From assembly GCF_020085105.1 (NCBI RefSeq), contig NC_058054.1, positions 6,995,595-7,059,594 of the forward strand: a stretch of DNA of 64,000 nt, read 5' to 3'. Shown in pieces: positions 1,341 through 51,984 of this stretch. The translations under genes were made by a program, and so were the position numbers. Positions within the stretch are counted from its first letter, which is position 1, and every line of letters begins with the position of its first letter. The notes below the pieces were generated by a model that worked only from the letters and a program-made list of their open reading frames with translations, was not told the origin of the DNA and ran no database searches. The stretch comes from Siniperca chuatsi. Its lineage: Eukaryota.

Positions 1341-1402
1341 GTTTTATAATTTAACATTATGAGAATGCTAAATGTCATTCTTTCTTACTTTTACTTCCTC
1401 AG

Positions 1403-8399: not shown

Positions 8400-8599
8400 T
8401 GTGACTGAAGTGCTGTGATTTCGGAGCTTTGGAGGGGCTCTTGAACGCCTCACGTGTGCAGATGTTGTGCGGGTGCGGTGAAGTTTTACAAACTCCTGGG
8501 AATATCGTGACCATGAAGGAGCCGTCACTGCTCGCTGCTTTGACAGTATTTGGTTCAAACTGAATGTAAAAGGATCTCTGAGTTGTCTTCTTATCTTCG
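8400..8599 (+). other. Candidate non-coding first exon (5' UTR) of ApoL-like paralog B
   Basis: GC-richer block that ends at a GTAGGT donor at 8600. It holds only a short uORF. It lies 1.15 kb upstream of the ATG exon. No transcript evidence. Confidence 0.25.
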
Positions 8600-9440: not shown

Positions 9441-9747
9441 GCTGTAGTTGTATTTCTTATTTTACTGAAGGATCTGAATATGTATTTCCCCACTGGTACT
9501 TGGATAGTACATATACTGTTAGTATGTAGTATGGAATTGGTACATAACATGTGGCCTAAGTGGAATGCAGGTATTATCAATGTAATCAATTACACCTGTG
9601 CTTTTCCTGTTATGGCATGTCAAAAGGTATGCTGTGAAGAACAGTGGAAGTTTGTCTCGTACTTTCATCTGGTCCAGTAGGCATTCAAATTGTAAATGCT
9701 CCAATCACAAACTGTTTACACTTTATCTTCCGGTGTCACTCTTACAG

Positions 9748-9800
9748 GCAGGATGGAGGCGTGTGTGATGAAGCCAGAAGTCAAAAAGAAACTAGAGCCG
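9748..9800 (+). CDS. ApoL-like paralog B, start-codon exon (ATG at 9753): MEACVMKPEVKKKLEP, no signal peptide
   Basis: Acceptor tcttacag at 9741-9747. Kozak-like context gcaggATGG. GTGAGA donor at 9801. Confidence 0.5.
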
Positions 9801-10002
9801 GTGAGAACATTTAGATCTAACACAAAAACACTGAACTAATGCACAACACAGTCTAAATACTCTCCAACACTGAAGTACAACAACACTGTACAGTATATAA
9901 AAACATCAAAAACATCGTACGACAGAGGAAGATGAAACCTGTTATTGTATACAGTACACACTCAGGTCTCATAATGTCTCATGTTCTCTTCTCTTTTCAC
10001 AG

Positions 10003-10029
10003 CCAAAACCTCCTCCAAAGCCTGCAGAG
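10003..10029 (+). CDS. Paralog B mini-exon (27 nt, phase 0): PKPPPKPAE
   Basis: ttttcacag acceptor and GTACTG donor. Open frame continuous with neighbouring exons. Confidence 0.4.
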
Positions 10030-10149
10030 GTACTGGAATAAACCCAAACCTTTGACTAGCTATGTGACAAAGTTACCCAGTAGGTTTTTTTATATATGTT
10101 TTCAGGATGTTGTAGTAAGGCTACTCAGCCAAGTAAACTATCTTTCCAG

Positions 10150-10218
10150 ATAAAAAGAAATGACCCAGAGAGACTGGAGAAACCGACTCCTCTAGTGCCT
10201 CAACGACCTACAGATGCT
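10150..10218 (+). CDS. Paralog B exon (69 nt, phase 0): IKRNDPERLEKPTPLVPQRPTDA
   Basis: ctttccag acceptor and GTAAGT donor. Open frame. Confidence 0.45.
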
Positions 10219-10699
10219 GTAAGTGGAGCATGGTCTTTGGTTTATGTGTACACAATAACGCGTGGGCCAGTTATCTCTAGTGATGTAGGCTCTATAATGT
10301 AATTGTTTTATGTATCCCAGAGTTTACCTTCTACTGAGCAGAAGTGGTGGGCCAACATTTCTTAAAGATCTGGTAAAATGTAACTAAATTAATTAGTCTG
10401 GGTTCCATTGGAGAGGATTTTTCCACTCTGTGAAACGTTAAACTGGGGGAGGGGGTGGTCCATCAAATCTATATCACTTTTAAACATATTGAATATTGAT
10501 ACAAGCTCGCTTCCATCTTTGGCCACTGGCAGCTTCAGCACAGCAATATCAGAACTGATATATGCCGTAAAAAACTAATTGAAAGAAAACAAAAATGTCT
10601 TCATTTGTAATATGAATTATCAGTGTTTTTCATAGAACTTGGAGAATGGGCCTCTTCAGAGAAACAGATTTTTAAAACAGATTGTTGTTTTCTGTGCAG

Positions 10700-10747
10700 G
10701 AACTGACACAATACTGGATAAAAAGAGCTGCAAAAACAAACAATGAG
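10700..10747 (+). CDS. Paralog B exon (48 nt, phase 0): ELTQYWIKRAAKTNNE
   Basis: tctgtgcag acceptor and GTATTT donor. Confidence 0.4.
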
Positions 10748-11649
10748 GTATTTACTGTATATGTTGTTGTTTTTAATAAATTGCTGTTACTTATGTTTTA
10801 CTAGATAGAGAGACAGAAATAAAAGGTGGGGAGGGGATGATATGTGACAATAGTCTTTAGGTTGAGCCTGCATCTGAGAATATCCTGGGAAACTTTGAAG
10901 ACAACTAGACATTTTTTTTATTTAAAAACAAACAAAACTTAGTGGTAAAGACACATACCATGTTTCTGTCAGACTTCTGGTTCAATTCGATTCGATTTGT
11001 TGCGAGTCATAACCCCTTTCTCTCTCCCTCTGTTTTTGTTTCATATCTGCATCTGAACTGTAACCTATTAAAAAAGACTAAATGCAAAATAAATCTCAGG
11101 AAAAAAACCCAAAAGAGGTACGAAAGATTATTTGAAGATGTTAGTCTTATCTGACATCTCACCAATCATTAGCATATAGGTCAATATATGAAACATCAAT
11201 ATAATTATTTAATATGTGGGTTTACATGTGAAAACCAAATTGTTACATATATATATATAAAATATAGCAGCCTGGTTGCTCTGTCTGGCAGCGTTTGACA
11301 TACTTCAGGTCTAGCACGCTACTGCATATAAAGGGGAGAGCATTGTACAGTGAGTCTCAGCTGTGTCAGTTAGCGCTCCCTGGCACTGCTCACCTGAGCC
11401 ACTCCTCCACCTCTCCCTCTCTGCAGCTGATTGCTTAACCATGCCCACCTCCACAGGGAGAAATCTAAATTACTGACCCGCTGCTTGTAAATGCAGATTT
11501 TAGAGTAATCTGATTATAGCAACACATGTAAACATGTTCCTCTGATTCCCTGCCTTAACCTGTTTTGTTTCAGTAGCCTGCTTAACTGTTACTGTTTATG
11601 CTCAGTGTTCATGTTCGCACAGGTTGAGTAACGTTTTTGTTATGTTTAG

Positions 11650-11709
11650 GGTGCAGAGTCGTTACACAGTGAGCTCTCTGCCAGCACTGGCAGCCTGTCG
11701 GAGGCCAAG
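11650..11709 (+). CDS. Repeat array, A-type mini-exon 1: GAESLHSELSASTGSLSEAK
   Basis: tag acceptor and GTGAGT donor. Carries the ELSAS..SLSE motif. 60 nt, phase 0. Confidence 0.6.
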
Positions 11710-12505
11710 GTGAGTCTTCATGTTAGAAATGACAGACAGATCCTCCCCACGCACCCGCTGAAACTACATGAGTCACCATGACTAACATTAAAGCACGTGT
11801 GAGAGAAAATATCTGCAGCTCCGTAGGTGCAAGATAAGGTTCTTTAATTCTGAAATGAAAGAAAATAAGTAAGTAAGCTTTAACATGTTTTCTGCTTTCT
11901 CTTTTTATTGTGGATGTATCGGGGTGGCGGCCTGTGTGTAGTTGTCTCTTGTTTATATTTTTGTCTATACTTGTTCTAAAAGTTTGAAATAAATTACAAA
12001 AAACAATATAACAAAACCCATCACATGCCACTTATGCTGACCTGAATCGACGTAAACAAAATACTGTGTGTACCAACAGCATCATAAACAATACAAAACA
12101 TTTTCACACAGCTCGTCATGGCTGAATCCAAATAGAAAAGGTTCTGTAGAGTCTTTGCCAACACTACAGAAGCTGTAAAAAGATGAAGACTACCTGCTGC
12201 TGCTTGATTATTAGATGACAGAGACTCAACATCATTCCTACCGCCTCATTTCCTGCCTGCGCTCCATTTAACCGGGTTCACCAACCCTATGGGGGGGGGG
12301 GAAAGCAAATGGCAGACCAAATGGAGCACAGCCAGTATGATGCATGTTCCTTGTATGTCCGCCAATGTGCTCAAATGCTTTAATCCAGGAGGAGCAGAAG
12401 TTACAATATGACAGACATTGAAATATTTAAGCACATTTCCTTTTCTTGTAACCCATTTTCTGTGGAGCTTCGCTCTGTTTCTGACCGTTTTAATTCTTTT
12501 TTCAG

Positions 12506-12574
12506 GAGAATCTGTCGGCACAGAAACATCTTTCAGCCAGCAATGACAGTCTGTCTGAGGCTGCCAACACAAAG
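12506..12574 (+). CDS. A-type mini-exon 2: ENLSAQKHLSASNDSLSEAANTK
   Basis: ttttttcag acceptor and GTCAGT donor. 69 nt, phase 0. Confidence 0.65.
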
Positions 12575-13982
12575 GTCAGTTTTTGTTGTAAAAACATTGG
12601 AAATCTGTTATTCACTTTATATTTGAAAGCTGATTTTTAAAGGATCAACATGTCATTTCATTGAATATGATACCTTGGTCCAGTTTCCATAAACAAATGA
12701 GACCAGAGTGTAAAGTTCAGCAGATATTTCCTGAAATCAAACCCCAGGGGCAAACATTGAAAAAATGCAGCACAGAGAAAAGGAGAGGTGATTAGTTGTT
12801 GAATCAGAATCAGAAATACTTTATTGATCCCCGAGGGGAAACTCTTTTGCTGAAGTTATTTTTCAAGCAAAAAGGCCAAAAATTCCCAGATTCCAGCTTC
12901 ACCATTGTGAGGATGAGCTGCTTTTCTTTGCCTTATATAAAATGAGTGTCTTCGGGTTTTGGACTGTGACATCTCTGTGGGCTCCAGGAAATTGTGACAG
13001 ACATTATTCACTATTTTCTGACACTATAGATTAAACCATGAATTGAGAAAATAATCGGCTGATGAATAGATAATGGAAATAATCTTTAGTTGCAGCCCTA
13101 CTTATGGTTGAAATTTAATTTGGTAATGATATGTGCTACCTGTATGTACAGTGATCCAGGTAATACCCTTCACTTTTTCATTTTTCCTTCATTTTATCAG
13201 GTAAAAGTCTTTTTCAAGACATCTGGCGATGAGGGTAGCATTAAAAACATTATTACCACCGTAAATACAAACAACATAAACAAACTAAAACAACTGTCAC
13301 ATGCTTCAAAAGACTACAGACATATATCTAGGACAGATATCTAGTTAGGATTAATTTACAGGTATGAGTTTCCAGAACTTTCAAAATGTTGTAAAAACAA
13401 TAAATTTAGAAGCAAATGCATTGACCAAGAGTACTTTATTAGTTGTTACTGAACGTAACTGCACTACAATGTATTTCTGATCTTTTATTCTGTATGTTGT
13501 TCCAAGAGAGGAAGGAAAAGCATATTTAAAAGCTTTTTTGCCCAACTCTTCGTCTAAACTTCAAAGCATTTCTACAAGGCTCAAGTAAAAAGAAACAGTG
13601 CTTTAAAAAAAATAGAAAATAGCTTTAATGTAGCTATGATAGTGACCAAACTGTGTGCAGAGCTCCTAAAACTAACTAGCATATTTATAAAAATATTCAA
13701 TCTACCTTATTTTCCTGTTCTTTTTTTCTTTATAGATTGTACCTACATTAGGTTATGTTAGGTTTATTAGGAAGATACGTATATACATATATAAATACTG
13801 TAAATGTATTGTATACTTTTTTCTTTTTCTTTTTTTTTTAAAGAAGTTAGCTGTCTTTCTGATTTTAGTTTTATGTGATGTCTTATTATGTATTTTTCTA
13901 ATTGATCCATATGTTCTAAGTCTGGAAGAGGGGATGTGATTACAAAGTAGAAAATAGATAATCATGTCTTCTTTGGAGACAG

Positions 13983-14054
13983 GAGAAAGGAGATGCGTTT
14001 GGTGGAATATTCAAGAAGTCGTCCAGACTTGCACACAGCCCTCCCACAGAGGAA
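13983..14054 (+). CDS. B-type mini-exon 1: EKGDAFGGIFKKSSRLAHSPPTEE
   Basis: AG acceptor at 13981-13982 and GTAAGA donor. 72 nt, phase 0. Carries the GG.F.G.FKK motif. Confidence 0.55.
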
Positions 14055-14332
14055 GTAAGAAGTGTCTTCTTTGTTTTCTGGTCCTTTTCAGTCATCCCAT
14101 ATATCGCTAATATTCTTAAACAGCAAATCAGTGTTTTCAAATTGGATGTTACCAAAATGTCAGACTAGTACACTTGTGACTGGAAGGCTGCTGGTTTGAA
14201 TCCCAGAACCAACAGTAAAAGCATTAGCTGTAAAAGAGCAGTAGGTGGCTCAGTTACCCCTCGCTGTTAGTGATGAAATGTTAAAAAGTCTGTAGCGTGT
14301 AACAGGTTCTGATTGTTTTTATCTCTTCTCAG

Positions 14333-14383
14333 GACGATGAGCTCTCAAGCAGCAGTGAAGCTCTGTCTGAGGACAACACCAAG
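14333..14383 (+). CDS. A-type mini-exon 3: DDELSSSSEALSEDNTK
   Basis: tcttctcag acceptor and GTGAGG donor. 51 nt. Confidence 0.6.
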
Positions 14384-14472
14384 GTGAGGTTTTTTTATGC
14401 ATCATTTAGAAACGGCCCTGAATAACTTTACTTTCGGAGAGAGCACTCATTGTCTGAATATGTATGTTTTAG

Positions 14473-14544
14473 AAAAAAGGAGGAATATTTAGTGGAATAT
14501 TCAAGAAAACTCCCAAACCTGCAAAAGTTGCTCAACCTGAGGAG
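14473..14544 (+). CDS. B-type mini-exon 2: KKGGIFSGIFKKTPKPAKVAQPEE
   Basis: ttttag acceptor and GTAAAA donor. 72 nt. Confidence 0.65.
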
Positions 14545-15031
14545 GTAAAAGTATAATTTGTCTGTGTCATTTACAGCAATATCAACCTTCATATTTTTAT
14601 TTTCTTGGAAGTCTTTTATGATAATGTTTAAATTGTAAAAAGCCTCATTACCTGTTGGGTAGCAGGATATCTGACACTTGTCTTCCAGATTTCTGTTCAA
14701 ATTTGGTGGAAAATTAGGAATACAAACAAACAAGTGATTAGTTGTTGGTGCAGATTCAGTATTTATTTTGAAAGATTTCTTAACATTGTGCATTTTTGAA
14801 TGTTTTCACTATTTTCACATGAACTACTGCACTGAAAATCTGGCACATGTATCCCATGATTGTCTATTACTGTGTATACCATTGCAAAACCATGCTCAGA
14901 TGTTCATTAAATATTTTCTATTACTCATTTCTATTAATATTAATATTACTATACTATATTACTATTAATATAGTAACAGGTAACATTTATTTGTTACCAC
15001 AACTTTTACAACCTCTGATAATTTTTTACAG

Positions 15032-15091
15032 GACGAGTCTTCCGACAACGAGCTCTCAACCAGCAACGAGAATTTATCTGAGAACAAACAG
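15032..15091 (+). CDS. A-type mini-exon 4: DESSDNELSTSNENLSENKQ
   Basis: ttttttacag acceptor and GTCAGT donor. 60 nt. Confidence 0.6.
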
Positions 15092-15189
15092 GTCAGTGAG
15101 TTGAAATCCAAGATGATTAAATGCTTTTCAACAAAACAGCAGTTGGATTTGTAAATACAGTAAAGCCTTTTTATTGTGTATTTCATCAG

Positions 15190-15258
15190 GTGAAAGGTGG
15201 AGGGTTGTTCAGCGGACTCCTGAAAAAGACTCCCAAAGCGTCTGGGGAAAGGACACCG
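15190..15258 (+). CDS. B-type mini-exon 3: VKGGGLFSGLLKKTPKASGERTP
   Basis: cag acceptor and GTGAAT donor. 69 nt. Confidence 0.6.
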
Positions 15259-15347
15259 GTGAATGAGTGTTTCCTGGATGTGCAATGAGTTTCTAAGCCT
15301 GCACGCAATTTCACCCGTTTCATGTAACATAAATTTCTGTGTTTCAG

Positions 15348-15413
15348 GACAGGGAGGCTCAGAAAGAGCTGTCAGCCAGCAACGACGACCCGTCTGAGAA
15401 TAATACGACAAAG
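15348..15413 (+). CDS. A-type mini-exon 5: DREAQKELSASNDDPSENNTTK
   Basis: gtttcag acceptor and GTGAGC donor. 66 nt. Confidence 0.65.
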
Positions 15414-15495
15414 GTGAGCAGTATAATGCAGCAACACCTTAAAAATATAAAATGTCTTTCAAGGGAATGTTCATTGACACCAAATTATTTTCCAG

Positions 15496-15564
15496 GAGAA
15501 AAATATTTTTGGCAACATGTTTAAGAAGCCGCAGAAACCAGCAGAGGGCGCTGCAGCAGACAAG
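15496..15564 (+). CDS. B-type mini-exon 4: EKNIFGNMFKKPQKPAEGAAADK
   Basis: ttttccag acceptor and GTACTG donor. 69 nt. Confidence 0.6.
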
Positions 15565-15664
15565 GTACTGTGATTTGATGAAATTGATTAAATCAGTCTT
15601 TAAACTTCCTGTTATGGAGGATGGAGTAGATGTTGATATTTACTGTTTTCTGGTTTGAATTCAG

Positions 15665-15736
15665 GAGCTGGAGGTGAACAGTGAAAATCAGTTATTTGGT
15701 AGCTGTGAGAATCTGTTTGATACCACCGTCCCGAAG
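15665..15736 (+). CDS. A-type variant mini-exon 6: ELEVNSENQLFGSCENLFDTTVPK
   Basis: ttcag acceptor and GTACAT donor. 72 nt. Confidence 0.55.
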
Positions 15737-16171
15737 GTACATCACTCTTTTAAAAAGAAAACAACACAAAACAAAACCCCTCTTGTTCTTAATTTTTCTG
15801 TCTCAAGGTGGCTGCTGTTGTCATGTGAGCTGAAACCTGATCATGATGATATCTTTGTGTTTGTCCTGTCCTGTCATTGGTCCTGTTGTGCGTTGCATTT
15901 AGCTGCAATCAAATATGCATGTAATAAATAATAATCTTTGTTTGGAGGGCTGTTAGTTACAAAGTGCTTCACACAACAAAAGTAAATAAAAACAAAAATA
16001 ATAAAAAAATTGTTCCAGATGAAAATCAAAAAATGGTGTGAGCAGTGTCTGATTCACTGTGTGTGATTAACTTGGGAGCAGGTTTAGCTTTTGACTCTTG
16101 TTTCTCTTTAGTTTTTCTGTTGTTTCTGAATGTATTCATTGAAGAGAAATAACAAATATTTGTGTTTTTAG

Positions 16172-16237
16172 GAGAAAAAAGGAGGCCTGGCTGGCATCTT
16201 CAAAAGATCAGCCAGCATCGACAGCCTGTTTGACGAG
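16172..16237 (+). CDS. B-type mini-exon 5: EKKGGLAGIFKRSASIDSLFDE
   Basis: tttttag acceptor and GTCAGT donor. 66 nt. Confidence 0.6.
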
Positions 16238-16651
16238 GTCAGTGTCCGCCCCGCACACACTCAACGCAGCATCCTCCCTACAGTTTAAGGCACCACTAAG
16301 GAGACATCATTGTTACACATGACAAAAATAAGTTGCAGAATCTACAGCATGTTTGAAGACAGTACAACTTGATTTTTTTTTTATGGTGTGCTGAAATGAA
16401 CCCAGCGCCTGCCTGAAAGGTAGAAAATAAATCGACTGTATGCTTTGAAACATAATCGGCAAAAATGTATAAAGTGCAATTTGAGGTATGTTTCCTGGAT
16501 AAACCATCTTCTTTCAAGCCTTTTTTTGCACTCTTCACGAGCCAATCGAGAGAAGATTATCAACAAAATGTCCAACATTAAACTGTGTTAATGACCTTTT
16601 ATCTTTGGTTTCAAACTTTGCACTGCACTCATTTGCATTTTCACTCATCAG

Positions 16652-16723
16652 GAAAAAGGCGGGCTGTTCAGTGGACTTCTTAAGAAAACACCCAAAGTGT
16701 CTGGAGATGAGGCAGCTGCAGAA
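16652..16723 (+). CDS. B-type mini-exon 6: EKGGLFSGLLKKTPKVSGDEAAAE
   Basis: cag acceptor and GTGAGT donor. 72 nt. Confidence 0.65.
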
Positions 16724-16810
16724 GTGAGTGTGTGACTTAGTTACACTGTTGGCATCACTGTCTGTGGTGACTGTTGCATATTTATATATTGTCCATTTCT
16801 CTTTTTTCAG

Positions 16811-16876
16811 GACAAAGATGACCAGAAGGAACTGTCAGCAAGTAATGATAGTCTGTTTGAAAACAGCAACACTAAG
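16811..16876 (+). CDS. A-type mini-exon 7: DKDDQKELSASNDSLFENSNTK
   Basis: cttttttcag acceptor and GTGAAA donor. 66 nt. Confidence 0.65.
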
Positions 16877-17041
16877 GTGAAATGTTGGTTTTTGAACCAC
16901 GAAAGGAATTTCAACAAAATTTCAACATGCTCGTACTGTTCTTTGAATTTTACTGTCAGCTGTGACACATTACAGATACTCCTGATGTAGTTTTTACTGC
17001 CACTTATACAGATTGTGTCTGTGTCTAATGTCTGTTTTTAG

Positions 17042-17110
17042 GAGAAAGGTATTTTCAGTGGCATGTTTAAGAAGACTCATAAATCAGCAGAGGGGACTAC
17101 AACAGATGAG
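17042..17110 (+). CDS. B-type mini-exon 7: EKGIFSGMFKKTHKSAEGTTTDE
   Basis: tttttag acceptor and GTACAG donor. 69 nt. Confidence 0.6.
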
Positions 17111-17211
17111 GTACAGCAATGACCCTTTCACATAAAGTTCATAGTATATTATACCATTTGACTCTACTTTGTATCTGTCTTTGTCTTTTTTATGTTTTAT
17201 TTTATGTTCAG

Positions 17212-17283
17212 GAATTGAACACAGGCGAGGATAAGAAGTTATCGGCCAGTTGTGAAAATCTGTTAGAAGCAACCACGTCAAAG
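17212..17283 (+). CDS. A-type mini-exon 8: ELNTGEDKKLSASCENLLEATTSK
   Basis: ttcag acceptor and GTACAA donor. 72 nt. Confidence 0.6.
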
Positions 17284-17380
17284 GTACAAATGTTGTCCGA
17301 CGACCACAATCTCAGCCTGTTTTTCTCTGTTCTGCCACTGATTAATGACTATTAACGTGTGAATGTTTCTTATGTTTCAG

Positions 17381-17452
17381 GAGAAGACTGGAGGACTGGC
17401 AGGGATCTTCAAAAAGTCTCCGAAACCAGCTCCACGCTCGATCGCTACTAAG
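17381..17452 (+). CDS. B-type mini-exon 8: EKTGGLAGIFKKSPKPAPRSIATK
   Basis: tgtttcag acceptor and GTGACC donor. 72 nt. Confidence 0.6.
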
Positions 17453-17642
17453 GTGACCAAATAAACTAATTTTGTTTTGTTTTTTTGTGGTGATGTGTAT
17501 GGTTACCGGTTGTTGAGTTGTCTGTGAAATCTCTCATTTACATTTTTAAGCGAATCATATTGTGCTCAAATTCTTCAAAAATAACCTTCAACAAGTTAAA
17601 ACTAATTGATTTGCCTACAAAATGTTCCTTTTTGTTTTCCAG

Positions 17643-17705
17643 GATCCTCTCAGTGACACAAAGGAACTGTCCGCCAGCTGGGACAGCCTCACAGAAACTG
17701 CCGAG
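17643..17705 (+). CDS. A-type mini-exon 9: DPLSDTKELSASWDSLTETAE
   Basis: ttttccag acceptor and GTGAGA donor. 63 nt. Confidence 0.6.
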
Positions 17706-18206
17706 GTGAGAGCTTCTCGAAGTCTGTGGATGCACTTGGCAACTTGTTGAGCAACGCTGATGCTGTAGGCGACAGTGCCAGTGTACTTTCATGAGAATAT
17801 TGTTTTGCCAGCAAACATTTGAATAGTTTTGAGAGGATGACCCCTCTCAGAACACTATGCTAAGGTTGAAGGCTAAAAAACATATCTGCACACTTATATC
17901 CAATGATATTTTTTAATATTTAAGCCAAGCCAAGCTTTCTTCTTTCATGTTTGACAAAAAGGAATCTCAGAGCACTGGAGCAGTGTGCAGAGCCTTCCTT
18001 TCTCTAGATTATCTGCCAGAAAACATTTAAAATAGATTTGCAATGCCGTTATTTACAGTTTTATATTTACTTTTAAACATCTGAGTAGGTTTTTGATCCT
18101 GTGTTAAACTTTGTTGCCAGTTTATGAGAGGGTTCCCCAACAACCTCACCCAAAAGTTTCAGTAATAACACAATTCTTGTTTTGTTGTTTGTTTTTTATT
18201 TTAAAG

Positions 18207-18269
18207 GATGATCTTGGTGAATTGTCAACCAGTAACAATAATCTTTCTGAAGTTACAAGCACCACAAAG
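18207..18269 (+). CDS. A-type mini-exon 10: DDLGELSTSNNNLSEVTSTTK
   Basis: ttttaaag acceptor and GTGAGT donor. 63 nt. Confidence 0.55.
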
Positions 18270-18366
18270 GTGAGTCTTGTAGAGTGTATTATTCTGTTTG
18301 ATTGTATCAACATAGTTTTGCTGTTTTGTGACTTAAATGAATGCTTTATGTTTTAATTTTTAACAG

Positions 18367-18426
18367 GATAAAAAAGGAGGGTTTGCTGGAATTTTCAGGA
18401 GGACGCCCAAAACAGTTGAACACCAG
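18367..18426 (+). CDS. B-type mini-exon 9: DKKGGFAGIFRRTPKTVEHQ
   Basis: taacag acceptor and GTACGA donor. 60 nt. Confidence 0.6.
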
Positions 18427-19245
18427 GTACGATATCATCAGCAATGAGAGGTGTGAAGTGTATTTATCAACACTTTTTTGAATCGTACAATCAGTAGTAG
18501 TTGGAACAACATATCTAGTAGCAGTAACAGTAGTCATAGTGGTAGTAACCTACAGAGAAGTAGGGCTAATCAGGAATAGGGTTATCGATGTAGATTAATT
18601 TCTAATCTGTACATTTGTTGTCAAAGAAGCAACTGAAGATGCTCTAAATACATAAAGAACATATTTTGTGATTTGATTTGCATGTTATGGTATTTGGCAG
18701 TTTTTAGTTTTATGTGCTTTGTTGTCTCTGTGGTCAATACAAAATGACTTTTAGAAAAAACAAAAACAAATTTATAGTGCTAACTATAAGGGCACTCGGA
18801 GAGCACAGACCTTCGCCAAGGCCAATAGTCCAGTCTTCCATGATATGCAAATCTGCAAGCGCAACCACAATATATGGCTGGATATATTTCCAAAACTATT
18901 AGAATTGCAGCATGTCAAAATATGGTTGTGCCTCATCATCTTAACCCACAATTGACCTATCTCGCAATGTTAACGAAAGTGAAAAATAATTTAGTGTATC
19001 TGCCCCGTGATTCGGATCCGCTCCAAAATTTTATGGGATCTTCCTTAGCCCATGCTACACCCTTCCACATCGTTTTCCTGTAATCCTGCTGACAGACAAA
19101 CAAACGACACCGAAAACATGACCTCCTTGGTTCTTGAAGTAATAATGGGTATAGAGAGTTAGCATTGCGAGCAAGTTAGATGATCCCTATAAAATCCTGT
19201 ACAGCTGTTAAGCAATTATCTTTGCTATCTGTCTTCATTTGTGAG

Positions 19246-19308
19246 GACGTGGAGGCACCAGAAGGAGGTGGGCTGAGACGCAGGACAACCATCAAGAAAA
19301 AAACACGA
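19246..19308 (+). CDS. Candidate additional, degenerate B-like mini-exon: DVEAPEGGGLRRRTTIKKKTR
   Basis: AG acceptor after a pyrimidine-rich tract, strong GTGAGT donor at 19309. 63 nt, phase 0, no stops. The motif is only loosely B-like. Confidence 0.35.
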
Positions 19309-19518
19309 GTGAGTTGTTCACTTCAGAAACATCATGACAGAAGACAGAAAACCAAAGTGTATTTCAACATCTATACCACTAGGTGGTTTAGGTTACTTAT
19401 ACTGTATCCATACATGAGATTATTTTTCTCTTGCTTCTCCAGTTTGAGCTCTTACCTTTTGATGTTAAAGTCATCTTGTCATTGACAAACCTTTCTTGTT
19501 TCGTTTCAATGTTCTCAG

Positions 19519-19581
19519 GTTGTATCATTCCGAGTCAGAAAAACTCTTCCCAAAATACCCAAGCTTAATCTAACTTCACAG
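19519..19581 (+). CDS. Paralog B exon (63 nt, phase 0): VVSFRVRKTLPKIPKLNLTSQ
   Basis: ttctcag acceptor and GTATGT donor. Open frame. Confidence 0.45.
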
Positions 19582-19919
19582 GTATGTAATGATCTCCTCT
19601 AGTTGTTCCTCAGTTACTTCTCACTTTGCTGTTTTGCTCCTGTTCTTTAACTGCATTAACAAAGACCGATCTGAAATTTGGTATAGATATGGATATCAAC
19701 ATGCTGAACATTTTCCTTTTACATTTTTGATTGAATGGTTGTTGTCCTGAGTAATTTTTTGACACAGATACATGTTCTGTCTCTACAAATATGCATTGTC
19801 CTCTTTTAAATTCATATTTCCTTTAGTTGTTTACTGGTTTTATTATTGATGTGTGTTAAAGTTCTCCAATGAACTTATTACTAAGTTAATGACATTAATC
19901 GTCCTTTATTCCTCCATAG

Positions 19920-19982
19920 AGTTCAGACAAGATCCCTGTTTTTGAGGAGACTGTTGAGCTGCAGGATCTGAACCCAGCGCAG
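19920..19982 (+). CDS. Paralog B exon (63 nt, phase 0): SSDKIPVFEETVELQDLNPAQ
   Basis: tccatag acceptor and GTTAGC donor. Open frame. Confidence 0.45.
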
Positions 19983-20653
19983 GTTAGCATGATGATATTA
20001 TAAAATAGATATACAGGAAAAAAACATTTTAGTGGGGTTCACAAATGTCCAACCAAGCCTAAATCTTAACTAAAATTTATATATATATAAAACATCTTTT
20101 ACATTAATAAATTAATTAACTCACTAAATAAAACTGGAACAGTCTGAAGATTCAGATACACTTGTAAAAAGCGAAGAAATGTATAATACATGAAAATGGA
20201 AGTACGTTTTTAAAGCATTGCTGATATGAAAATGTTAAAAACACTGTGTAGTCATTTCAAATGTTTACAAACATAACATATCATGTTTATCATGTAATCA
20301 GACACTTGTGAGTTGTGGGAATCTGCAAATTAAAAAACCTCTGCTGCTCATAAGAGTCTCAGCCTGCGTAAAACAGTATAATAATTACATCATATCCTTA
20401 TAATATTATTAACTGTGTATTTCCTTTTGTGAAGCACAACCTTAGGTCACCACTCTACATCTGATTACAGGGAGAAAATAAACCCTTTTCTGTATGTGAT
20501 ACAGAACCATACAGACTGTCAACCGCTGAGAATCAGAATCTGTGTCCCTCTAACAGGCATACAGAGAGAATGGTAGTGACAGTAGTTACAGATACTAACC
20601 CTTTTAACTGAATTTTTTGTCACAAAGTTGTGTTATTGTGTTTGTTTTTCCAG

Positions 20654-20728
20654 GAGAGCACAGTGGAGGTCCAGCCTGTGAAGATGGCAGCTTACAATAC
20701 TGAAGACAACCCTCTTGAATCTGAGCAG
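20654..20728 (+). CDS. Paralog B exon (75 nt, phase 0): ESTVEVQPVKMAAYNTEDNPLESEQ
   Basis: tttttccag acceptor and GTGTGT donor. Same position as paralog A exon 495-572. Confidence 0.5.
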
Positions 20729-20738
20729 GTGTGTTTTT

Positions 20739-21819
20739 GGGTGCTTTCACACCTGTAGTTTGTCTCTTGGTCCGGATCGAATGAACCAAAGTGACACAAT
20801 ATTGCATTTTAGTTCTGGTCTGGTTCGTGTTCACACTGACTTTTTATAAACAAACCAAAAAGGAGTAAACACAAAGTTATACAGACTGACAGGTAACTCG
20901 TTGATTGGACAGTTTCGGTGATGGCATCCTGCATCATCAGTGCATCATCAGGACCCACGTGGGGAATTCAAATTCCTGTGACTGACAGAAGTTTATGCAG
21001 CAATTTAATGCTTCTGATGTGTATATTTATGTTCTTCGGTGTCACAAAGAGCTCATGAAGAAGTATCTGATTATGAGCATTATTAATATTATTGGACTGC
21101 AAATCGACCGCATGTTATGAATAATGACTTACAGGTAGATAAAGGACTAAAAAGAGGCATCTTGTACAGCAATATTCCAGGGGTAATTACTGTGGGATCA
21201 CTCTGTCACACACTTTTTAATGGACTTAATTAAGTAAATAATTAAGCACATGGAGTAGGATACAAACACAACACACCTGAGGTTTCCAGGTCCAGAAAGA
21301 AAGTTCCTTTGACAATAAATTAACACTTTCTACAGGGAGATAGTCCATGAGTGGCCTCTAAATGTTCAGAAATGGCTGATCATTACCTTTAAGCACAGAG
21401 CTGAGCCTTTCATGTGGTAATACATTAAAGATTTCTTTGTACCAGAAAGTAACAGTAGGAGGGGTTTCCTTGAACGTTTTTTACCAAATGATTTAAATGA
21501 ATATATACATGGCTTATACAGATCATTATCTCACTTATCAGATTGCTTCCTAAACAGTTCAGGACCAGTAGATGGATTTATTAGTAGTTTAGCTTTTGAA
21601 ATCATGCTAAAATCACATCCCTACTATCAAAAAGTCCTGTGGTTGGTCTGTTTGCTTTCAAACCACAAATTAATCGCACCAGAGTCTGCTTGGAGGGTCT
21701 CGGTCCGGTTGTTTGGTTCGAGCGACAGCTCTCACAGCAGCCCAAACGGCCGCACTAACCGGGCAGACGCACCATATTTCATTTTAACTGAACCAAACAG
21801 GTTAGTTGTGAAAGCACCC
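20739..21819. mobile_element. Non-autonomous DNA-transposon-like insertion in a paralog B intron, with about 13-15 bp terminal inverted repeats (GGGTGCTTTCACA ... TGTGAAAGCACCC)
   Basis: The inverted repeat sits at 20739-20753 and 21805-21819. No long ORF lies inside. Confidence 0.45.
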
Positions 21820-21919
21820 TTAGTGTTTGTGTGTGTGTAAGTGTGTTTGCATGTTTTACTACATATATGCAACCGATACTGTATGTTGTCTTTTCATTGA
21901 CGAAGGTCTCTGTTTTCAG

Positions 21920-21959
21920 GAAAGTGATGAGTTGATGGAGTGGTGGAACACCGTCAAAG
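21920..21959 (+). CDS. Paralog B exon (40 nt, ends phase 1): ESDELMEWWNTVK
   Basis: tgttttcag acceptor and GTCAGT donor. Paralogous to exon 694-733. Confidence 0.7.
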
Positions 21960-22062
21960 GTCAGTATGATTGTGTTCATCTTTAATCTTTAAGTTTGTTG
22001 TGCTGTTCCACCAGGAGAATTACCACTGATGCCAAAGAAAGTGTGGAAATCACACACTCACT

Positions 22063-22092
22063 CACACACACACACACACACACACACACAAA
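22063..22092. repeat. (CA)n microsatellite
   Basis: Perfect CA dinucleotide run. Confidence 0.95.
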
Positions 22093-22227
22093 TAAATAAA
22101 AATGTTTCTTTTAATGTAAAGTCCCAAAAAAAGATTCAATAAATCAGCACTAAAAACTAGAAACAAAACACTGTTTTATGTATTTGCTCCATATACTAAT
22201 TGTATTATTTCTGCTTCCGGTTTACAG

Positions 22228-22279
22228 GTTGGACGGACTGGAATGAGACATCCAATTTCCAGGAAGGGGATGAGGAAAT
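22228..22279 (+). CDS. Paralog B exon (52 nt): GWTDWNETSNFQEGDEE(M)
   Basis: tttacag acceptor and GTAAGT donor. Paralogous to exon 1403-1454. Confidence 0.7.
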
Positions 22280-22918
22280 GTAAGTTTATTTTCTTTAATA
22301 ACTTTTCATTCAAATTTACCCAGAAGATATTATTTTGGCATTCTGAGGACATTTTAGTGTGCAGGAGGCTGTTTAATCTTTTTTTTTTAGTCAGCACCAT
22401 CTGACCTGTCGCAAGTACTGTTGCTACTGCTATCTAAAGTAGCTAGGAAGCTCATTGATAATGGGCAAATGTAAAATAATTAAATGAATCAATCATTTTT
22501 AATTGGTTAACTCCATCCATCCATTTTCTGCTTCTTATCCAGATCCAGGTTGTGTTAATATAGTTAATTATAGCATTAGAAATTATTGTTATATACTGCT
22601 GGGAACGAAGTACTGAAAAAAATGTGATATAATAATGAATAATTTTGGGTCATAACGTCCCTGCTAGTTTTCCATCGTACTTTCAAGCTTTGGCCAATAT
22701 GACTGAAACAGGTATTAAACTGGTTTATTGGTGAACTCTGCAGAATCCCTGTTATCCAGTATTTGTCAACATTCGGGTTCAAATGATAAATGTAAATATT
22801 TTAAGAGCCCATGTTTTGCTGGGTCCACACACATGCACGTAGGAAATAGCTATTTCTTAGACTTACAAGCATTTAACTTTAAACTTAACAAATACACCAT
22901 CCATCCACCATTCTCCAG

Positions 22919-23333
22919 GGCGATGGAGCAGGCAGCTGATCGTGTCTACATGGCAGCTCGTCTGTTTGTGCATCTTTTCAACCAGCGGGGGGCGTCCTTA
23001 CAGCATCGCATCCTGGAGCTTTTGGCTCTGGCCGACGCTGCAGATCAATTCCACAAAAGAACAGTGACAGCTGCTGTGGGTGGAGGGGTGGCCAGTGTTG
23101 CAGGCAGCGTGGCAACAATCACAGGGCTCATTCTGGCGCCTTTCACTTTTGGTGCCTCTATTATTGTCACAGCGGTGGGGATTGGCGTGGCGACAGCGGG
23201 CAACATCACGGCAGCGACAGCCAATATCACAGATACAGTTCACTCCAGCATGGACCGCAAGAAGGTGGAGAAGATGATCCAGAGCTATCAGGAGGAGATC
23301 AAAGACATCAGAGAGTGTTTGGAGTTCGTACAG
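22919..23333 (+). CDS. Paralog B exon, first half of the ApoL domain: AMEQAADRVYMAARLFVHLFNQRGASLQHRILELLALADAADQFHKRTVTAAVGGGVASVAGSVATITGLILAPFTFGASIIVTAVGIGVATAGNITAATANITDTVHSSMDRKKVEKMIQSYQEEIKDIRECLEFVQ
   Basis: ttctccag acceptor. The frame carries over from the previous exon (at + g gives atg). GTGAGG donor at 23334. Homologous to paralog A residues AFAVTADKVQ...FIKQ. Confidence 0.8.
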
Positions 23334-24192
23334 GTGAGGAAATGTTTGATTTGAGTTTGTAGCTGAATCTCACATAGGCTTTGCAGATGTGTCTACAGAC
23401 TTATTACTGCTGGTGACATTATACAGGTTCACTGGAGACATAGTAATGCAAAAATACTGTAACTAGACCAGAACTAGAGATTCCTGAAAAAAATGTGGTT
23501 GCTTTGTAGATTAATCTGTAAAAAAAAATTCCAATGTAGTAACAAGAAATGTTTGAAGTAATGTAGAAAGTGTTGCACTGTTACTGCTCGGTATGTATTT
23601 TAGTCACAGTTCTTTCGAAAAATAAATTCAAGGGATTCCTATCCTATGTCCCTAAAATGTTTGTGTTTATGTAAAAAATAATACTGGCCAATATTGTAAC
23701 TCTCAAGTATTAGCATTTTTATATCTGCCTCCAGTATAGAAATCTAGTATTGATCGGGCTGTGACTGCTTTTGAGTTTAGCTTGAGAAGAGCTCAGTTGG
23801 CTTAATCGTTAAACCAGTAGGTGTGTTTTTGTATTGTTAGCTAGCTAACTAGACATTAAGATAGTTTAGTTAGCTAGTAAATACATTTTTATTTGACATG
23901 GACATCACAATAGTAATGGAATTGCATAGAGATGCATTGGGTGTGAGAATGACTTTGTGTAGCAATAATGGAAAACACCTGTCGTCGGGTAATTAACGAA
24001 AGTAACTGATGTCAATATCGAAATGATAGTAGCCACCGCTAAAGCTAGGTTTTACTACATGTAGGCTAAGTAAGGAAGGAAATGTGCATCAAAAATGAGT
24101 TTGGGATTACATATGTGAATAGTTTTAAAATCACGGGAAAACCTTGAACCTTTAGTAGTGTCCTCCTTTTTTTGTCTCTGTGCCACTTGTAG

Positions 24193-25977
24193 GACGGTAT
24201 GGACACCCTGCAGGAGTGGGACTTTGAGAAATACTCAGAGAGTGCTGCCAAAAAGGCTCTGAACCACAACCTCAAGCATGTGATGAAGGAGGGCGGCCGT
24301 GCCGGAAAAGCCTTGATGATCAACACCGATAAGCTCATCAGCACTGTGCAGGTTTTAGGCGCTGCAGGCGGAGCCGCCAGAGCTGCCCAGGCCATCAGCG
24401 TCACCACAGGTGTCATGTCGGCCCTCTTTCTCGCTCTGGATGTTTTCTTCCTCGCCAAAGACTCCCACGAGCTCCACAAGGGCGCCAAAACTAAGTTTGC
24501 CACCAAGATCAGGGACGTATGTAAAGAACTTCAAGAAGGCCTCCTGGAGCTGAACAAGGTGAAGACACAGCTGCAGAAGACCATGGACGGCATTGAGGTG
24601 GAGGAGTACGAGGAGATTGAGGAGGTAGAAGTGGAAGTTGACGACGATTTGGAGTCGGATCCAAAGAAGCTGGCTGAGCTGGAGCAGGAGCTGGACCTCC
24701 TGGAGGAGAAACTGGACAAGAAGGTCGAGGAGGAAGAGCAGAAGAAGATTAAAGAGATGGAGAAAGAAAATTTGAAAAGAAAGAAGGAGAAAAAGGAGGA
24801 GAAGAGCATGAAGGAAAAAGGAGAGCCAGAGGAAAAGAAGGAGAAGGAGGAAACAGGAGAAAAGGATGCTAAGAACGAGGGAAAAAAGGAAAGTAAGAAG
24901 GGAGGAAGTGAGGGAGAAAGCAAGGTTGAGTCAAAATTAGAGAAGATTTCTGATGAGGAAAAAGAGCAGAACAATGAGACAGTCAAAGCAGCCAAAGAGG
25001 AAGTTTTAAATGAACAATCTCAGAAACAGAAGAAGGACAAAGAAACTGAGAACCGAATTACAGCTGGAAAAGAAATATATGAGAGCAAGCAAGACAAGGC
25101 AAAAGAAGACATTAGTACAAATAGAAAGGCAGACGAAAAGGAAAAAGAGAAAAATAAGACTGGAAAAGAACACAAGGAAATTAAGAGCAGATCAGACGAT
25201 TCAAAACGAGAGGACCGGAGTGGAAAAGCATATTCTGAGAGGGTCAAAACAGAGAGAGAAAGCGAAAGGAGTAAGAGCAGCAGAGAGGATGAAAGAGTGA
25301 TGAATAAAGAGAAAGAGGCAGAAAGTGGGAGTGCAAGGAGGCACAGCAGCAGGAGTGACAAAGATAGACCCCACAGACGTGAAAGAGGGAGCAAACACGA
25401 AAATAAAGAAACCGAGAGATGCAGCAGCAGAGACAGAAAACAAAGTGACAGGAGGGAGAGCAAGAGGAGGACAGAGGAGGACAGAGGAGTGAGGGACTGG
25501 AGAGCAGAGATGGCAAAAAGTAGAGACGAGAAGAGAGAGAGCAAGGAAGGAAGAGAATCTAAGAGAGAGACAGAGAGAGGGACAGAAAGGGAACATCATG
25601 GAAAAAGCAACGTGAGCAAAGAGTCACATCGAAGCCACGAAACGGCGACGAGGAGGAAGCATTCGGAAAGAGAGTGGGGGAGCAGCAGGGAGGAATCTGA
25701 CTCGAATAGGAGTCACCACAGGAGAGGAACAGCCCCGCATGATGACCGGAGGGAGAGAGCAGATGAGAAACGAGGGAGCAGGATTGAGAGGGCAAAGAGG
25801 CAGTTTGAGAGAGCAGGGGGTGAGGAGGAGGAGGACAGGGGGAAGAGGAAAGAGGATGGACAGAGTCAGGGGAGGGACAGAGAGAGGAGAGGAAGTGATA
25901 GAGGCAGAGAGCACCACAGCCACCGAGGAGCTCGACCACGATCCAACGCGCTGCTGGAAGACGGACTGAATATTTAA
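24193..25977 (+). CDS. Paralog B terminal exon: second half of the ApoL domain (..VMSALFLALDVFFLAKDSHELHKGAKTKFATKIRDVCKELQEGLLELNKVKTQL..), then an open low-complexity tail of about 480 codons (K/E-rich, then R/S/E/D-rich) to TAA at 25975-25977
   Basis: ttgtag acceptor in frame. This matches the 592-aa ORF in the track. The homology to paralog A stops at about codon 130 of this exon. The tail is only weakly supported, because the GA-rich sequence is open in several frames on both strands. Confidence 0.7.
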   Translation, partial: DGMDTLQEWDFEKYSESAAKKALNHNLKHVMKEGGRAGKALMINTDKLISTVQVLGAAGGAARAAQAISVTTGVMSALFLALDVFFLAKDSHELHKGAKTKFATKIRDVCKELQEGLLELNKVKTQLQKTMDGIEVEEYEEIEEVEVEVDDDLESDPKKLAELEQELDLLEEKLDKKVEEEEQKKIKEMEKENLKRKKEKKEEKSMKEKGEPEEKKEKEETGEKDAKNEGKKESKKGGSEGESKVESKLEKISDEEKEQNNETVKAAKEEVLNEQSQKQKKDKETENRITAGKEIYESKQDKAKEDISTNRKADEKEKEKNKTGKEHKEIKSRSDDSKREDRSGKAYSERVKTERESERSKSSREDERVMNKEKEAESGSARRHSSRSDKDRPHRRERGSKHENKETERCSSRDRKQSDRRESKRRTEEDRGVRDWRAEMAKSRDEKRESKEGRESKRETERGTEREHHGKSNVSKESHRSHETATRRKHSEREWGSSREESDSNRSHHRRGTAPHDDRRERADEKRGSRIERAKRQFERAGGEEEEDRGKRKEDGQSQGRDRERRGSDRGREHHSHRGARPRSNALLEDGLNI

Positions 25978-31260: not shown

Positions 31261-32035
31261 CCACTGAAATTTCAAAATGCTCAGTACTGCACATATATTA
31301 ACTGTACATTATGATGACATGTATAGTTTATAAGTTAATATGAGTTATATGATGCATGCAAGTCTATGGAGGCCCATTGAGTCCCACTGTATTTATAGCA
31401 CAGCACATATATACAGTACAAACTATAATACACACCGGTCAACTGTGAATGAGCTCTTTATGATGACCCCATTTACTCCCATTACATCTTTAACTCAGCG
31501 AATTCACTGCACACGGCTCCTTTAAGCTGTGTATTTTGAATAGAATTAGAGAGACAATCAGTATTGTGACATCAAACATATTTGATGGCATGACTGTTAG
31601 CTAAACCTGTTTTAAAGTAAATGTCTTGGGGTGCTTTTCATATTTTAGATTCTCGCTAAGGAAGAACCTGTCGTGATGCGGTTACCAGTATTTGGTTAAC
31701 CTTTTTTTTTTTATAAATATGACATCATTCTTGTGAATGTTTCTTGTTTTTCAGGTCTCTCTTGGAAAAGAGATTTTGATTTCAATGAGACTGCCTGTTA
31801 AATAAAGATTAAATAAAAAAAATATATATATTACAGAGTGTATGAAAAGGAGATATTTAAAACTCAGTCCTATAACTTAAAATCGATTCTGTCACTCAAG
31901 TAAAATCCCTATTAAGACGGTGTAGTCCCCATAGTCCCTCATGGCTCTTTTAACTTTGTTAACTTTGTTAAAAGAGCCAAAAAACAGGACAAAAGTGCAA
32001 CAGAACCAAGAAGGAACGGTGTCTCCATTCCTTCT

Positions 32036-51558: not shown

Positions 51559-51984
<426 letters not shown>

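Follow-up and report, generated by a model that had tools for sequence, protein, structure and literature searches.

An apolipoprotein L gene of Siniperca chuatsi, orthologous to teleost apold1a, with an array of alternating A and B mini-exons

A 64,000-nucleotide stretch of Siniperca chuatsi DNA (contig NC_058054.1, positions 6,995,595 to 7,059,594; hereafter the window) carries on its plus strand, between positions 9748 and 25977, one open coding model of 31 exons and 1,336 amino acids (aa), which was predicted from the genomic sequence and ends with a TAA stop codon at 25975-25977. In order, the model comprises a Pro/Lys-rich head, 19 mini-exons of two alternating types (A and B), conserved linker exons, an apolipoprotein L (ApoL) domain encoded by two exons and a long tail rich in K, E, R and S. 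The locus is orthologous to a teleost gene known in annotations as apold1a or si:rp71-1g18.13. Its transcription unit runs on the plus strand from about 7.25 kb, the position of a candidate non-coding first exon, to 25,977. The array arose by old duplications of A+B exon pairs, selection acts on its exons only, and it is common to a tandem paralogue. Taken together, the best explanation, which we consider probable, is a single apold1a-orthologous gene with old A+B duplications, whose product works through an inferred membrane-arm mechanism.

The window is AT-rich vertebrate DNA. An initial annotation of it, made from the letters alone, had placed the start of the gene at 9748/9753 and the stop at 25975-25977, and both are correct: the N-termini of orthologues match the ATG at 9753 and the segments 10003-10029 and 10150-10218. 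The gene model of that annotation was seven exons short, lacking one exon near the 5′ end (10700-10747) and six between the array and the ApoL exon. With its exon set the open reading frame (ORF) is 1,257 aa long; four further phase-0 exons extend it to 1,336 aa. It had also assumed a direct join between the array and the ApoL exon. The array cannot splice directly to exon 22919, because all array exons are in phase 0 and exon 22919 is entered in phase 2; a splice from the last B exon to 22919 was therefore ruled out. The exons downstream of the array are listed below, with the support for each (E, expectation value); the splice sites of the six linkers are canonical.

19246-19308, plus strand: linker DVEAPEGGGLRRRTTIKKKTR, strongly basic; tblastn match to P0133 with E 1e-5, GTGAGT donor, 89% identical to Solea
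19519-19581, plus strand: linker VVSFRVRKTLPKIPKLNLTSQ, containing VVSFRVRKTLPK…; tblastn match to P0133 with E 8e-6, splice sites
19920-19982, plus strand: linker SSDKIPVFEETVELQDLNPAQ; orthologue match and splice sites
20654-20728, plus strand: linker ESTVEVQPVKMAAYNTEDNPLESEQ (ESTVEVQPVKMAAYNTED…), with a Met used as start by short annotated isoforms; orthologue match
21920-21959, plus strand: linker ESDELMEWWNTVK(G), phase 0 to 1; region confidently helical in AlphaFold2
22228-22279, plus strand: linker (G)WTDWNETSNFQEGDEE(M), phase 1 to 2; GTAAGT donor, required for the frame into the ApoL exon
22919-23333, plus strand: ApoL exon 1, entered in phase 2, AMEQAADRVYM... and Gly-rich hairpin; Pfam E 1.3e-23, profile positions 48-171
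24193-24700, plus strand: last exon, part 1, C-terminal half of the ApoL domain (…LDVFFLAKDSHELHKGAKTKFA…) followed by an acidic helix; Pfam E 1e-9, profile positions 222-297
24701-25977, plus strand: last exon, part 2, low-complexity K/E/R/S/D tail of about 425 aa ending in ...ALLEDGLNI; cross-species conservation

The linker motifs RRRTIKKK, VVSFRVKK, VEMAAYPTE, LMEWWNTVK and W.EWNE share one reading frame with the array and the ApoL domain. The Logan contig L001 (1,202 nt) has no introns at the five 3′ exon junctions, and its ORF extends to the 5′ end of the contig. The equivalent of exon 20654 is spliced in this cDNA-like contig and is skipped in Mastacembelus isoform X4, from which exactly the 25-aa exon equivalent to 20654-20728 is missing. 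A homologue search with the junction region returned genome-based models and L001 only, and no transcript contig spanning the array and the ApoL part.

Between 19246 and 19581 the linker sequence is very basic (RRRTTIKKKTR-VVSFRVRKTLPK), and its K-x-R-x-x-S-F resembles a site for basophilic kinases of the AGC type. A motif similar to the 19519 linker, (T/S)FR(I/V)KR.LP, was seen in a third ApoL group annotated 'apolipoprotein L6-like'. The intron between exons 21920-21959 and 22228-22279 contains a (CA)20 microsatellite (22051-22090).

That the mini-exons and the ApoL exons form one gene, as the initial annotation had proposed, is supported by more than 15 teleost gene models in which the array and the ApoL domain are fused, and by Nothobranchius proteins joining array units to the ApoL domain (UniProt A0A1A8… entries; N. 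furzeri 'transcript variants X1-X11'). The A0A1A8… entries presumably derive from transcriptome assemblies. A query consisting of the array only retrieved 39 teleost proteins, about 20 of which also contain PF05461, among them Chanos 'apold1a', Neolamprologus si:rp71-1g18.13 and proteins of Nematolebias and Poecilia. An exhaustive phmmer search, with an orthologue containing only the array as query, found just 56 matches among 1.84 billion representative proteins; the array occurs in these only in the two tandem ApoL paralogues, and the named matches are all from teleosts, spanning eels and tarpon to percomorphs. The gar ApoL protein P0111 lacks the array.

By their N- and C-termini, the full-length phmmer hits can be sorted into two families. 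Members of the first start with MEAC.MKPEVKKK…PKPPPKP and end with …DGL(N/Y)I, as the model does (MEACVMKPEVKKKLEPPKPPPKP … ALLEDGLNI). These ends were also found in P0207, P0210, P0212, P0215-P0217, P0223, P0226 and P0232. To this family belong apold1a of Osmerus eperlanus (X1-X7, 1,290-1,533 aa), apold1a X2 of Sardina pilchardus (1,703 aa), Solea senegalensis LOC122772061 and Oryzias latipes si:rp71-1g18.13 (A0A3P9J5N8), which share head, array, linkers, ApoL domain, tail and C-terminus with the model, and proteins of Pungitius, Takifugu, Oncorhynchus, Anabas and Mastacembelus. The second family starts with MDRYDNLDLDLECEGGG…, ends with …DYENREYV and is named apolipoprotein L1 in Alosa. Its members (the paralogue 'apolipoprotein L, 1' of Alosa alosa, X1-X7; Scomber scombrus P0143; Synaphobranchus P0137) likewise have an A/B array, an LMEWWNTVE segment and an ApoL domain. 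They differ from the apold1a family in their termini, in extra repeats of the NPF(R/K) type, in having the ApoL domain in a single exon, and in lacking the long K/E/R/S tail.

The model aligned with full-length Solea isoforms in a single high-scoring segment pair covering residues 93-1336, with 63% identity over 1,313 aa, and the order of the units is collinear among percomorphs. There are fewer units here than in Solea or Osmerus (31 coding exons, 19 of them in the array, versus 48 coding exons in Solea). When window positions 3-28 kb were compared by blastn with the locus of Solea senegalensis, 27 of the 31 model exons stood out as conserved islands, with their order retained; of 5,996 aligned bases 3,992 were exonic, against an exon share of only about 16% in the region. 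The apol1-like paralogue followed by apold1a, in this order and on the same strand, was found here, in Syngnathoides (L003) and in Solea (L004). No identical protein was present in the databases searched, the best match being 94% identical in the ApoL part.

The initial annotation had regarded an ApoL protein with such an array as undescribed. The same architecture is present in RefSeq and Ensembl predictions for many species across Teleostei, labelled apold1a, si:rp71-1g18.13 or 'uncharacterized', and occurs in two paralogous genes; it is new to the literature, not to the databases. Literature searches with 'apold1a' and 'rp71-1g18.13' found nothing, and neither a paper nor a Pfam family describing the array was found. 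An APOL evolution paper and an APOL review (PMC11726835) do not treat fish proteins. The same gene carries different labels across fishes ('nucleolar protein dao-5-like', 'titin homolog', 'futsch-like', 'apolipoprotein L6', 'apold1a'), and a gene of some thirty symmetric exons of 27-75 nt is readily split or shortened by annotation pipelines. One model of Oncorhynchus gorbuscha (P0122) reads the exons of the linker and of the ApoL domain in a wrong frame, an annotation artefact.

The assembled model matched Pfam PF05461 with 118.7 bits (cut-off 25.9; E 4.5e-34) over residues 610-863, corresponding to profile positions 43-297 of 298. The ApoL assignment of the initial annotation is thus confirmed on the conceptual protein, and the exon hits lie within 22919-24700. 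Exon 22919-23333 is 85% identical to Solea at the DNA level, and the ApoL part is 90-94% identical to orthologues named 'apolipoprotein L domain containing 1a' or si:rp71-1g18.13. In the translation of 9-26.5 kb both repeat motifs are visible, and the last exon is a 594-aa open frame containing LDVFFLAKDSHELHKGAKTKFA; its ApoL half and early tail are 60% identical to P0117 over 379 aa. The open frame of the tail is by itself weak coding evidence, because the strand is purine-rich. Its predicted coding status rests on conserved sequence and on the C-terminal peptide, (L)L.DGL(N/Y/D)I, which recurs in at least 12 full-length orthologues.

The array was delimited with profiles built from six A units and seven B units, which were used to search all stop-free segments in six frames of the whole 64 kb. 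There were 19 hits with E<0.1, all on the plus strand between 11,656 and 18,429; in the rest of the window no hit was below E=0.7. Each unit is one phase-0 mini-exon of 51-72 nt with a polypyrimidine-AG acceptor and a GT donor. A units are acidic and Ser-rich (ELSASNDSLSE), B units basic and aromatic (EKGGxFSGxFKKSPKP). The units are as follows (HMM, hidden Markov model).

11650-11709, plus strand: A1, GAESLHSELSASTGSLSEAK; HMM E 7e-7, AG/GT, phase 0
12506-12574, plus strand: A2, ENLSAQKHLSASNDSLSEAANTK; HMM E 9e-12, splice sites
13983-14054, plus strand: B1, EKGDAFGGIFKKSSRLAHSPPTEE; HMM E 0.075, 85% DNA identity to Solea exon EKGGGFSGMFKKSSRLVDGPPTEK
14333-14383, plus strand: A3, DDELSSSSEALSEDNTK; profile hit, splice sites
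14473-14544, plus strand: B2, KKGGIFSGIFKKTPKPAKVAQPEE; HMM E 9e-14, splice sites
15032-15091, plus strand: A4, DESSDNELSTSNENLSENKQ; HMM E 0.008, 82% identity to Solea exon DESPDKELSASSENLSENKQ
15190-15258, plus strand: B3, VKGGGLFSGLLKKTPKASGERTP; HMM E 4e-10, splice sites
15348-15413, plus strand: A5, DREAQKELSASNDDPSENNTTK; HMM E 8e-12, splice sites
15496-15564, plus strand: B4, EKNIFGNMFKKPQKPAEGAAADK; HMM E 0.004, 76% DNA identity to unit B7
15665-15736, plus strand: A6, degenerate, ELEVNSENQLFGSCENLFDTTVPK, 5′ end uncertain because several in-frame acceptors exist; weak HMM hit, orthologues in P0133 and P0208 in the same order
16172-16237, plus strand: B5, a B/A hybrid, EKKGGLAGIFKRSASIDSLFDE; HMM E 6e-10, orthologous exon in Nematolebias, Syngnathoides and Solea
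16652-16723, plus strand: B6, EKGGLFSGLLKKTPKVSGDEAAAE; HMM E 2e-12, splice sites
16811-16876, plus strand: A7, DKDDQKELSASNDSLFENSNTK; HMM E 6e-12, splice sites
17042-17110, plus strand: B7, EKGIFSGMFKKTHKSAEGTTTDE; HMM E 3e-13, splice sites
17212-17283, plus strand: A8, ELNTGEDKKLSASCENLLEATTSK; HMM E 4e-10, splice sites
17381-17452, plus strand: B8, EKTGGLAGIFKKSPKPAPRSIATK; HMM E 1e-12, best-conserved unit across species
17643-17705, plus strand: A9, DPLSDTKELSASWDSLTETAE; HMM E 1e-9, orthologous DPLSD...SASWDSLTE in Nothobranchius and Poecilia
18207-18269, plus strand: A10, DDLGELSTSNNNLSEVTSTTK; HMM E 0.02, splice sites
18367-18426, plus strand: B9, the last unit, DKKGGFAGIFRRTPKTVEHQ; HMM E 2e-12, splice sites

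The rule of one unit per phase-0 exon, flanked by AG and GT, also holds for the repeats of Nematolebias, Syngnathoides and Solea. The A units have a net charge of -1 to -5, contain 17-38% Ser/Thr and usually one S-x-x-D/E site of the casein kinase 2 (CK2) type. In the B units the core has a charge of +1 to +4, and an S/T-P site lies inside KK(S/T)PKP. A family consensus was drawn from 195 non-identical A units and 345 non-identical B units of all retrieved proteins. In the A consensus ELSASNDSLSE, the residues are conserved family-wide to 99% (S), 97% (L), 92% (S) and 78% (D); in the B consensus EKGGxFSGmFKK(S/T)PKP, to 92% (G), 97% (K/R), 73-76% (F) and 71% (P). No Pfam family matched the array. 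In an AlphaFold2 model of a Nothobranchius isoform, calculated with a 38-sequence alignment, the LMEWWN/W.EWNE segment and the ApoL helices were confident, whereas the array had a predicted local distance difference test score (pLDDT) of about 30 and was essentially without secondary structure.

Tandem Repeats Finder detected no array at the DNA level in the window. DNA repeats within 11-19 kb are limited to exon cores, with 60-85% identity, and the introns are not repeated. The A+B pair 15348-15564 matches the pair 16811-17110 (repeat families D4 and D6), which supports growth by duplication of a two-exon cassette, as the initial annotation had proposed from the exon structure. One-to-one collinear orthology of the units with two percomorph-type sequences, P0208 and Solea, indicates that the array is old and stable and has not been recently homogenised.

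Upstream of the array the following exons were identified (UTR, untranslated region).

7246-7283, plus strand: candidate upstream exon (5′ UTR or alternative first exon); CAG|GTGAGT donor, 5′ boundary undefined
9748-9800, plus strand: first coding exon, ATG at 9753, MEACVMKPEVKKKLEP; AG acceptor at 9746-9747, GTGAGA donor
10003-10029, plus strand: exon PKPPPKPAE, 27 nt, phase 0-0; orthologous exon in Syngnathoides and Solea
10150-10218, plus strand: exon IKRNDPERLEKPTPLVPQRPTDA, 69 nt, phase 0-0; tblastn matches to P0124/P0123 with E 2e-7 to 5e-6, GTAAGT donor
10700-10747, plus strand: exon ELTQYWIKRAAKTNNE, 48 nt, phase 0-0, absent from the initial annotation; conserved with Solea exon ELTGTQYRVKRAAATINE

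Counterparts of the first coding exon are found at the N-termini of P0123, P0121, P0129 and many full-length orthologues. The conserved exon ending at 7283 is likely to be a non-coding first exon. It is about 90% identical to positions 3106-3162 of the Solea locus L004, which code for NLKVATPHSQ in one Solea model. By inspection, without a predictor, the N-terminus of the model (MEACVMKPEVKKKLEPPKPPPKP / MEACVMKPEVKKKLEPPKPPPKPAE) is hydrophilic and Pro/Lys-rich, in agreement with the earlier statement that the protein has no signal peptide. An apparent N-terminal ORF (MFSGCCSK…, at 10096), considered as an alternative start or as a palmitoylation site, was dropped: conservation begins at the acceptor 10149/10150, and the part upstream of it has no orthologous counterpart.

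Four conserved non-coding islands shared with the Solea locus lie on the plus strand between the 3′ end of the paralogue and the first coding exon (4148-4639, 7246-7304, 7436-7600 and 8413-8518). They are candidates for promoter, 5′ UTR or paralogue 3′ UTR, and one of them ends at the GTGAGT donor at 7284, matching the Solea upstream exon.

Skipping of symmetric exons, which the initial annotation had anticipated, was seen as whole-cassette differences among RefSeq predicted isoforms of other species. In Osmerus the missing stretch is either one A+B pair of 45 aa or a run of units totalling 185 aa; in Solea it is a block of 179 aa.

For the activity of the protein we propose the following mechanism. 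The protein would be cytosolic and anchored by the ApoL hairpin in the cytosolic leaflet of a membrane. The hairpin (GGGVASVAGSVATITGLILAPFTFGASIIVTAVGIGVATAGNI) is rich in Gly, Ala, Val and Ile and has no acidic residues; it is a putative membrane-insertion element. ApoL hairpins without acidic residues have been argued to be able to insert at neutral pH, and APOLs to act in membrane remodelling from the cytosolic side (review PMC11726835). The disordered array would serve as a multivalent arm, in which patches of Lys/Arg and Phe in the B units could bind acidic phospholipids and the neighbouring acidic A units would oppose this binding. Phosphorylation, of CK2-type S-x-x-E/D sites in A units and of S/T-P sites in KK(S/T)PKP of B units, would tune the binding. 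Alternative splicing of the symmetric exons would set the number of cassettes and hence the avidity. As a whole, this hairpin-anchored, lipid-binding arm tuned by phosphorylation and splicing is a tentative proposal, on balance doubtful as it stands. The statement that the A/B array is an undescribed, teleost-specific module acting as a splice-tunable, phosphorylation-gated membrane-binding arm on an ApoL hairpin protein is a little less likely still.

MARCKS-type effector segments are short unstructured clusters of Lys/Arg and Phe next to phosphorylatable Ser/Thr and work as electrostatic switches. In its sequence features the B core is likewise an unstructured Lys/Arg and Phe cluster beside a phosphorylatable Ser/Thr, and by analogy the binding of B units to acidic lipids could be reversible. 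In sequence they are not homologous to MARCKS; the B patch is much shorter, it is repeated at least nine times and interleaved with A units, and each copy has its own exon. The initial annotation had described the B unit as basic and amphipathic. A long amphipathic helix was not borne out: the unit is a short basic/aromatic patch ended by Pro, in an array that AlphaFold2 predicts to be disordered.

Several points weigh against the explanation as a whole. Lipid binding, phosphorylation, localisation and pore activity are all putative, and the B unit is too short and too limited by Pro for a classical amphipathic helix. Exons that other species have between head and array were sought in the window and none was detected; the model may be incomplete, missing here exons that lie elsewhere between head and array. 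In several annotation pipelines the locus comes out as two genes, one with the array only ('nucleolar protein dao-5-like', 'titin homolog') and one with the ApoL domain, and many annotated orthologues are short, ApoL-only proteins whose first residue is the Met of exon 20654 or that of MEQAADR. Given these short orthologues, the array-containing form may be a minor isoform. On this account, which is compatible with a single gene, an internal promoter or start near exon 20654 would give the main product, a short protein with the ApoL domain only, and the array form would be rarer; we regard it as a real possibility, although not the likelier one. Short forms starting with MAAYPTE… include a zebrafish 382-aa 'novel protein similar to human apolipoproteins' (P0015) and stickleback P0003, Nothobranchius has at least 11 transcript variants differing mostly at the 5′ end, and the zebrafish apol1 literature used a short locus of 2.6 kb (PMC4492502). 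The short models may, however, be truncated predictions: the ORF of L001 runs upstream of the exon 20654 Met without a stop, and the array exons are clearly constrained, with unit-by-unit orthology among percomorphs, which would be unexpected for rarely used exons. The splitting of the locus, on the other hand, would suit two independent genes, a disordered-repeat gene and a two-exon ApoL gene starting at the ATG at 22923. Array-only annotations exist in Syngnathoides, Cottoperca, Polymixia, Hippocampus and Poeciliopsis, the array and ApoL models of Syngnathoides are adjacent, 235 bp apart, and the ATG at 22923 has a reasonable context (gcgATGg) and is the start of many database proteins (MEQAADR). 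But the array-only model of Syngnathoides has no terminal exon of its own: it runs past the donor of its last B exon and ends in intron sequence (…KTVDKE|VRVRFI). The acceptor of exon 22919 is strong, and its phase, 2, is the one that the conserved exons 21920 and 22228 supply exactly; L001 is spliced across these exons with an ORF that is open at the 5′ end; and the full-length models of more than 15 species, with conserved termini, and the Nothobranchius proteins fuse the two parts. Two separate genes are therefore very improbable, and a single gene remains the preferred structure.

With respect to function, the array could instead be a scaffold of short linear motifs, in which B would be a docking peptide and A a CK2-phosphorylated sorting or adaptor cluster, recruiting cytoskeletal or trafficking machinery to ApoL-marked membranes. 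In both units positions are conserved beyond what charge would need (L-S-A-S-x-D-x-L-S-E in A; G-x-F-S-G-x-F-K-K-S/T-P-K-P, with G at 92%, in B), the array is disordered in AlphaFold2, and mammalian APOL and APOLD1 have been reported with cytoskeleton and trafficking partners (PMC11726835, PMC9973481). The array matched no known motif class, however, nor anything in Pfam, and basic-aromatic patches are also classical lipid binders. The scaffold role is, by our estimate, less likely than not, and it is about as defensible as the lipid-binding mechanism. Far less credible is a secreted, lipoprotein-associated ApoL like human APOL1, acting as an extracellular pore-forming factor of innate immunity. 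Membership in the ApoL family and a weak match of the hairpin to bacterial toxins would fit it; a hydrophilic N-terminus without signal peptide, in a long, disordered and highly charged protein, would not. The toxin match came from a phmmer search of the hairpin region as a single-sequence query against PDB sequences and was weak (E 6e-4 to NheB, 6tao_A, and to Vibrio MakE, 6w08_A). It covers a helix and a hydrophobic hairpin (TITGLILAPFTFGASIIV vs TIFGVVLAPFTLGGSLIL). It was absent with the family profile, and a Foldseek search of the AlphaFold2 model against PDB gave no hit with E<0.001, only generic helical bundles; no relevant literature on ApoL with ClyA was found. The similarity may reflect composition only and is a lead at most. 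A role as a pore-forming or innate-immunity effector, which the initial annotation had suggested, found no support in the analysis.

If the array regulates membrane engagement, the gene would be a natural case of avidity tuned by the number of cassette exons. In any case two teleost ApoL genes carry a large, conserved, disordered N-terminal array. Work on fish ApoL, including zebrafish apol1 models of kidney disease, seems limited to the ApoL-domain part, and the short zebrafish 'apol1' locus (2.6 kb, PMC4492502), used in modelling APOL1 nephropathy, may be a truncated view of a larger array-bearing gene. The mammalian proteins APOLD1 (VERGE), APOL3 and APOL6 likewise lack a signal peptide, contain a flexible hairpin of hydrophobic helices in their ApoL domain and act at the cytosolic membrane face (PMC11726835, PMC8557400). 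They are about 280-400 aa long, and the ApoL literature searched describes neither an N-terminal repeat array nor a long charged tail. The link to mammalian APOLD1 is one of name only: RefSeq calls the same fish proteins APOL3-, APOL4- or APOL6-like.

Several other features of the window were noted. A second ApoL gene, the tandem paralogue that other annotations call 'apolipoprotein L, 1', reaches into the window with its 3′ end (691-2937, plus strand). This part consists of a small exon, QDVENLMEWWNTVE (691-732), and an ApoL domain in one exon (2008-2946; Pfam E 1.9e-35), with …IEKDIENREY at its end. Full-length relatives of this paralogue in other fishes have an A/B array, which here would lie upstream of the window. 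Downstream, an ORF at 37965-38273 (plus strand) resembles the C-terminal part, with a DOMON domain, of P0136, the 'apold1a' model of Chanos (tblastn E 2e-6), in which apold1a and the gene downstream of it have probably been fused. An RRM-domain ORF segment at 51559-51984 (minus strand; Pfam E 3.4e-13), which we take to resemble hnRNP C/RALY, belongs to a neighbouring gene on the opposite strand. Three transposon remnants were found: a Penelope-like ORF with a GIY-YIG domain (31916-32554, plus strand), a reverse-transcriptase-associated segment (38936-39619, minus strand) with a Pfam ALKBH8_N match typical of the ORF2 tails of long interspersed nuclear elements, and a DDE_3 fragment of the Tc1/mariner type (40848-41153, minus strand).

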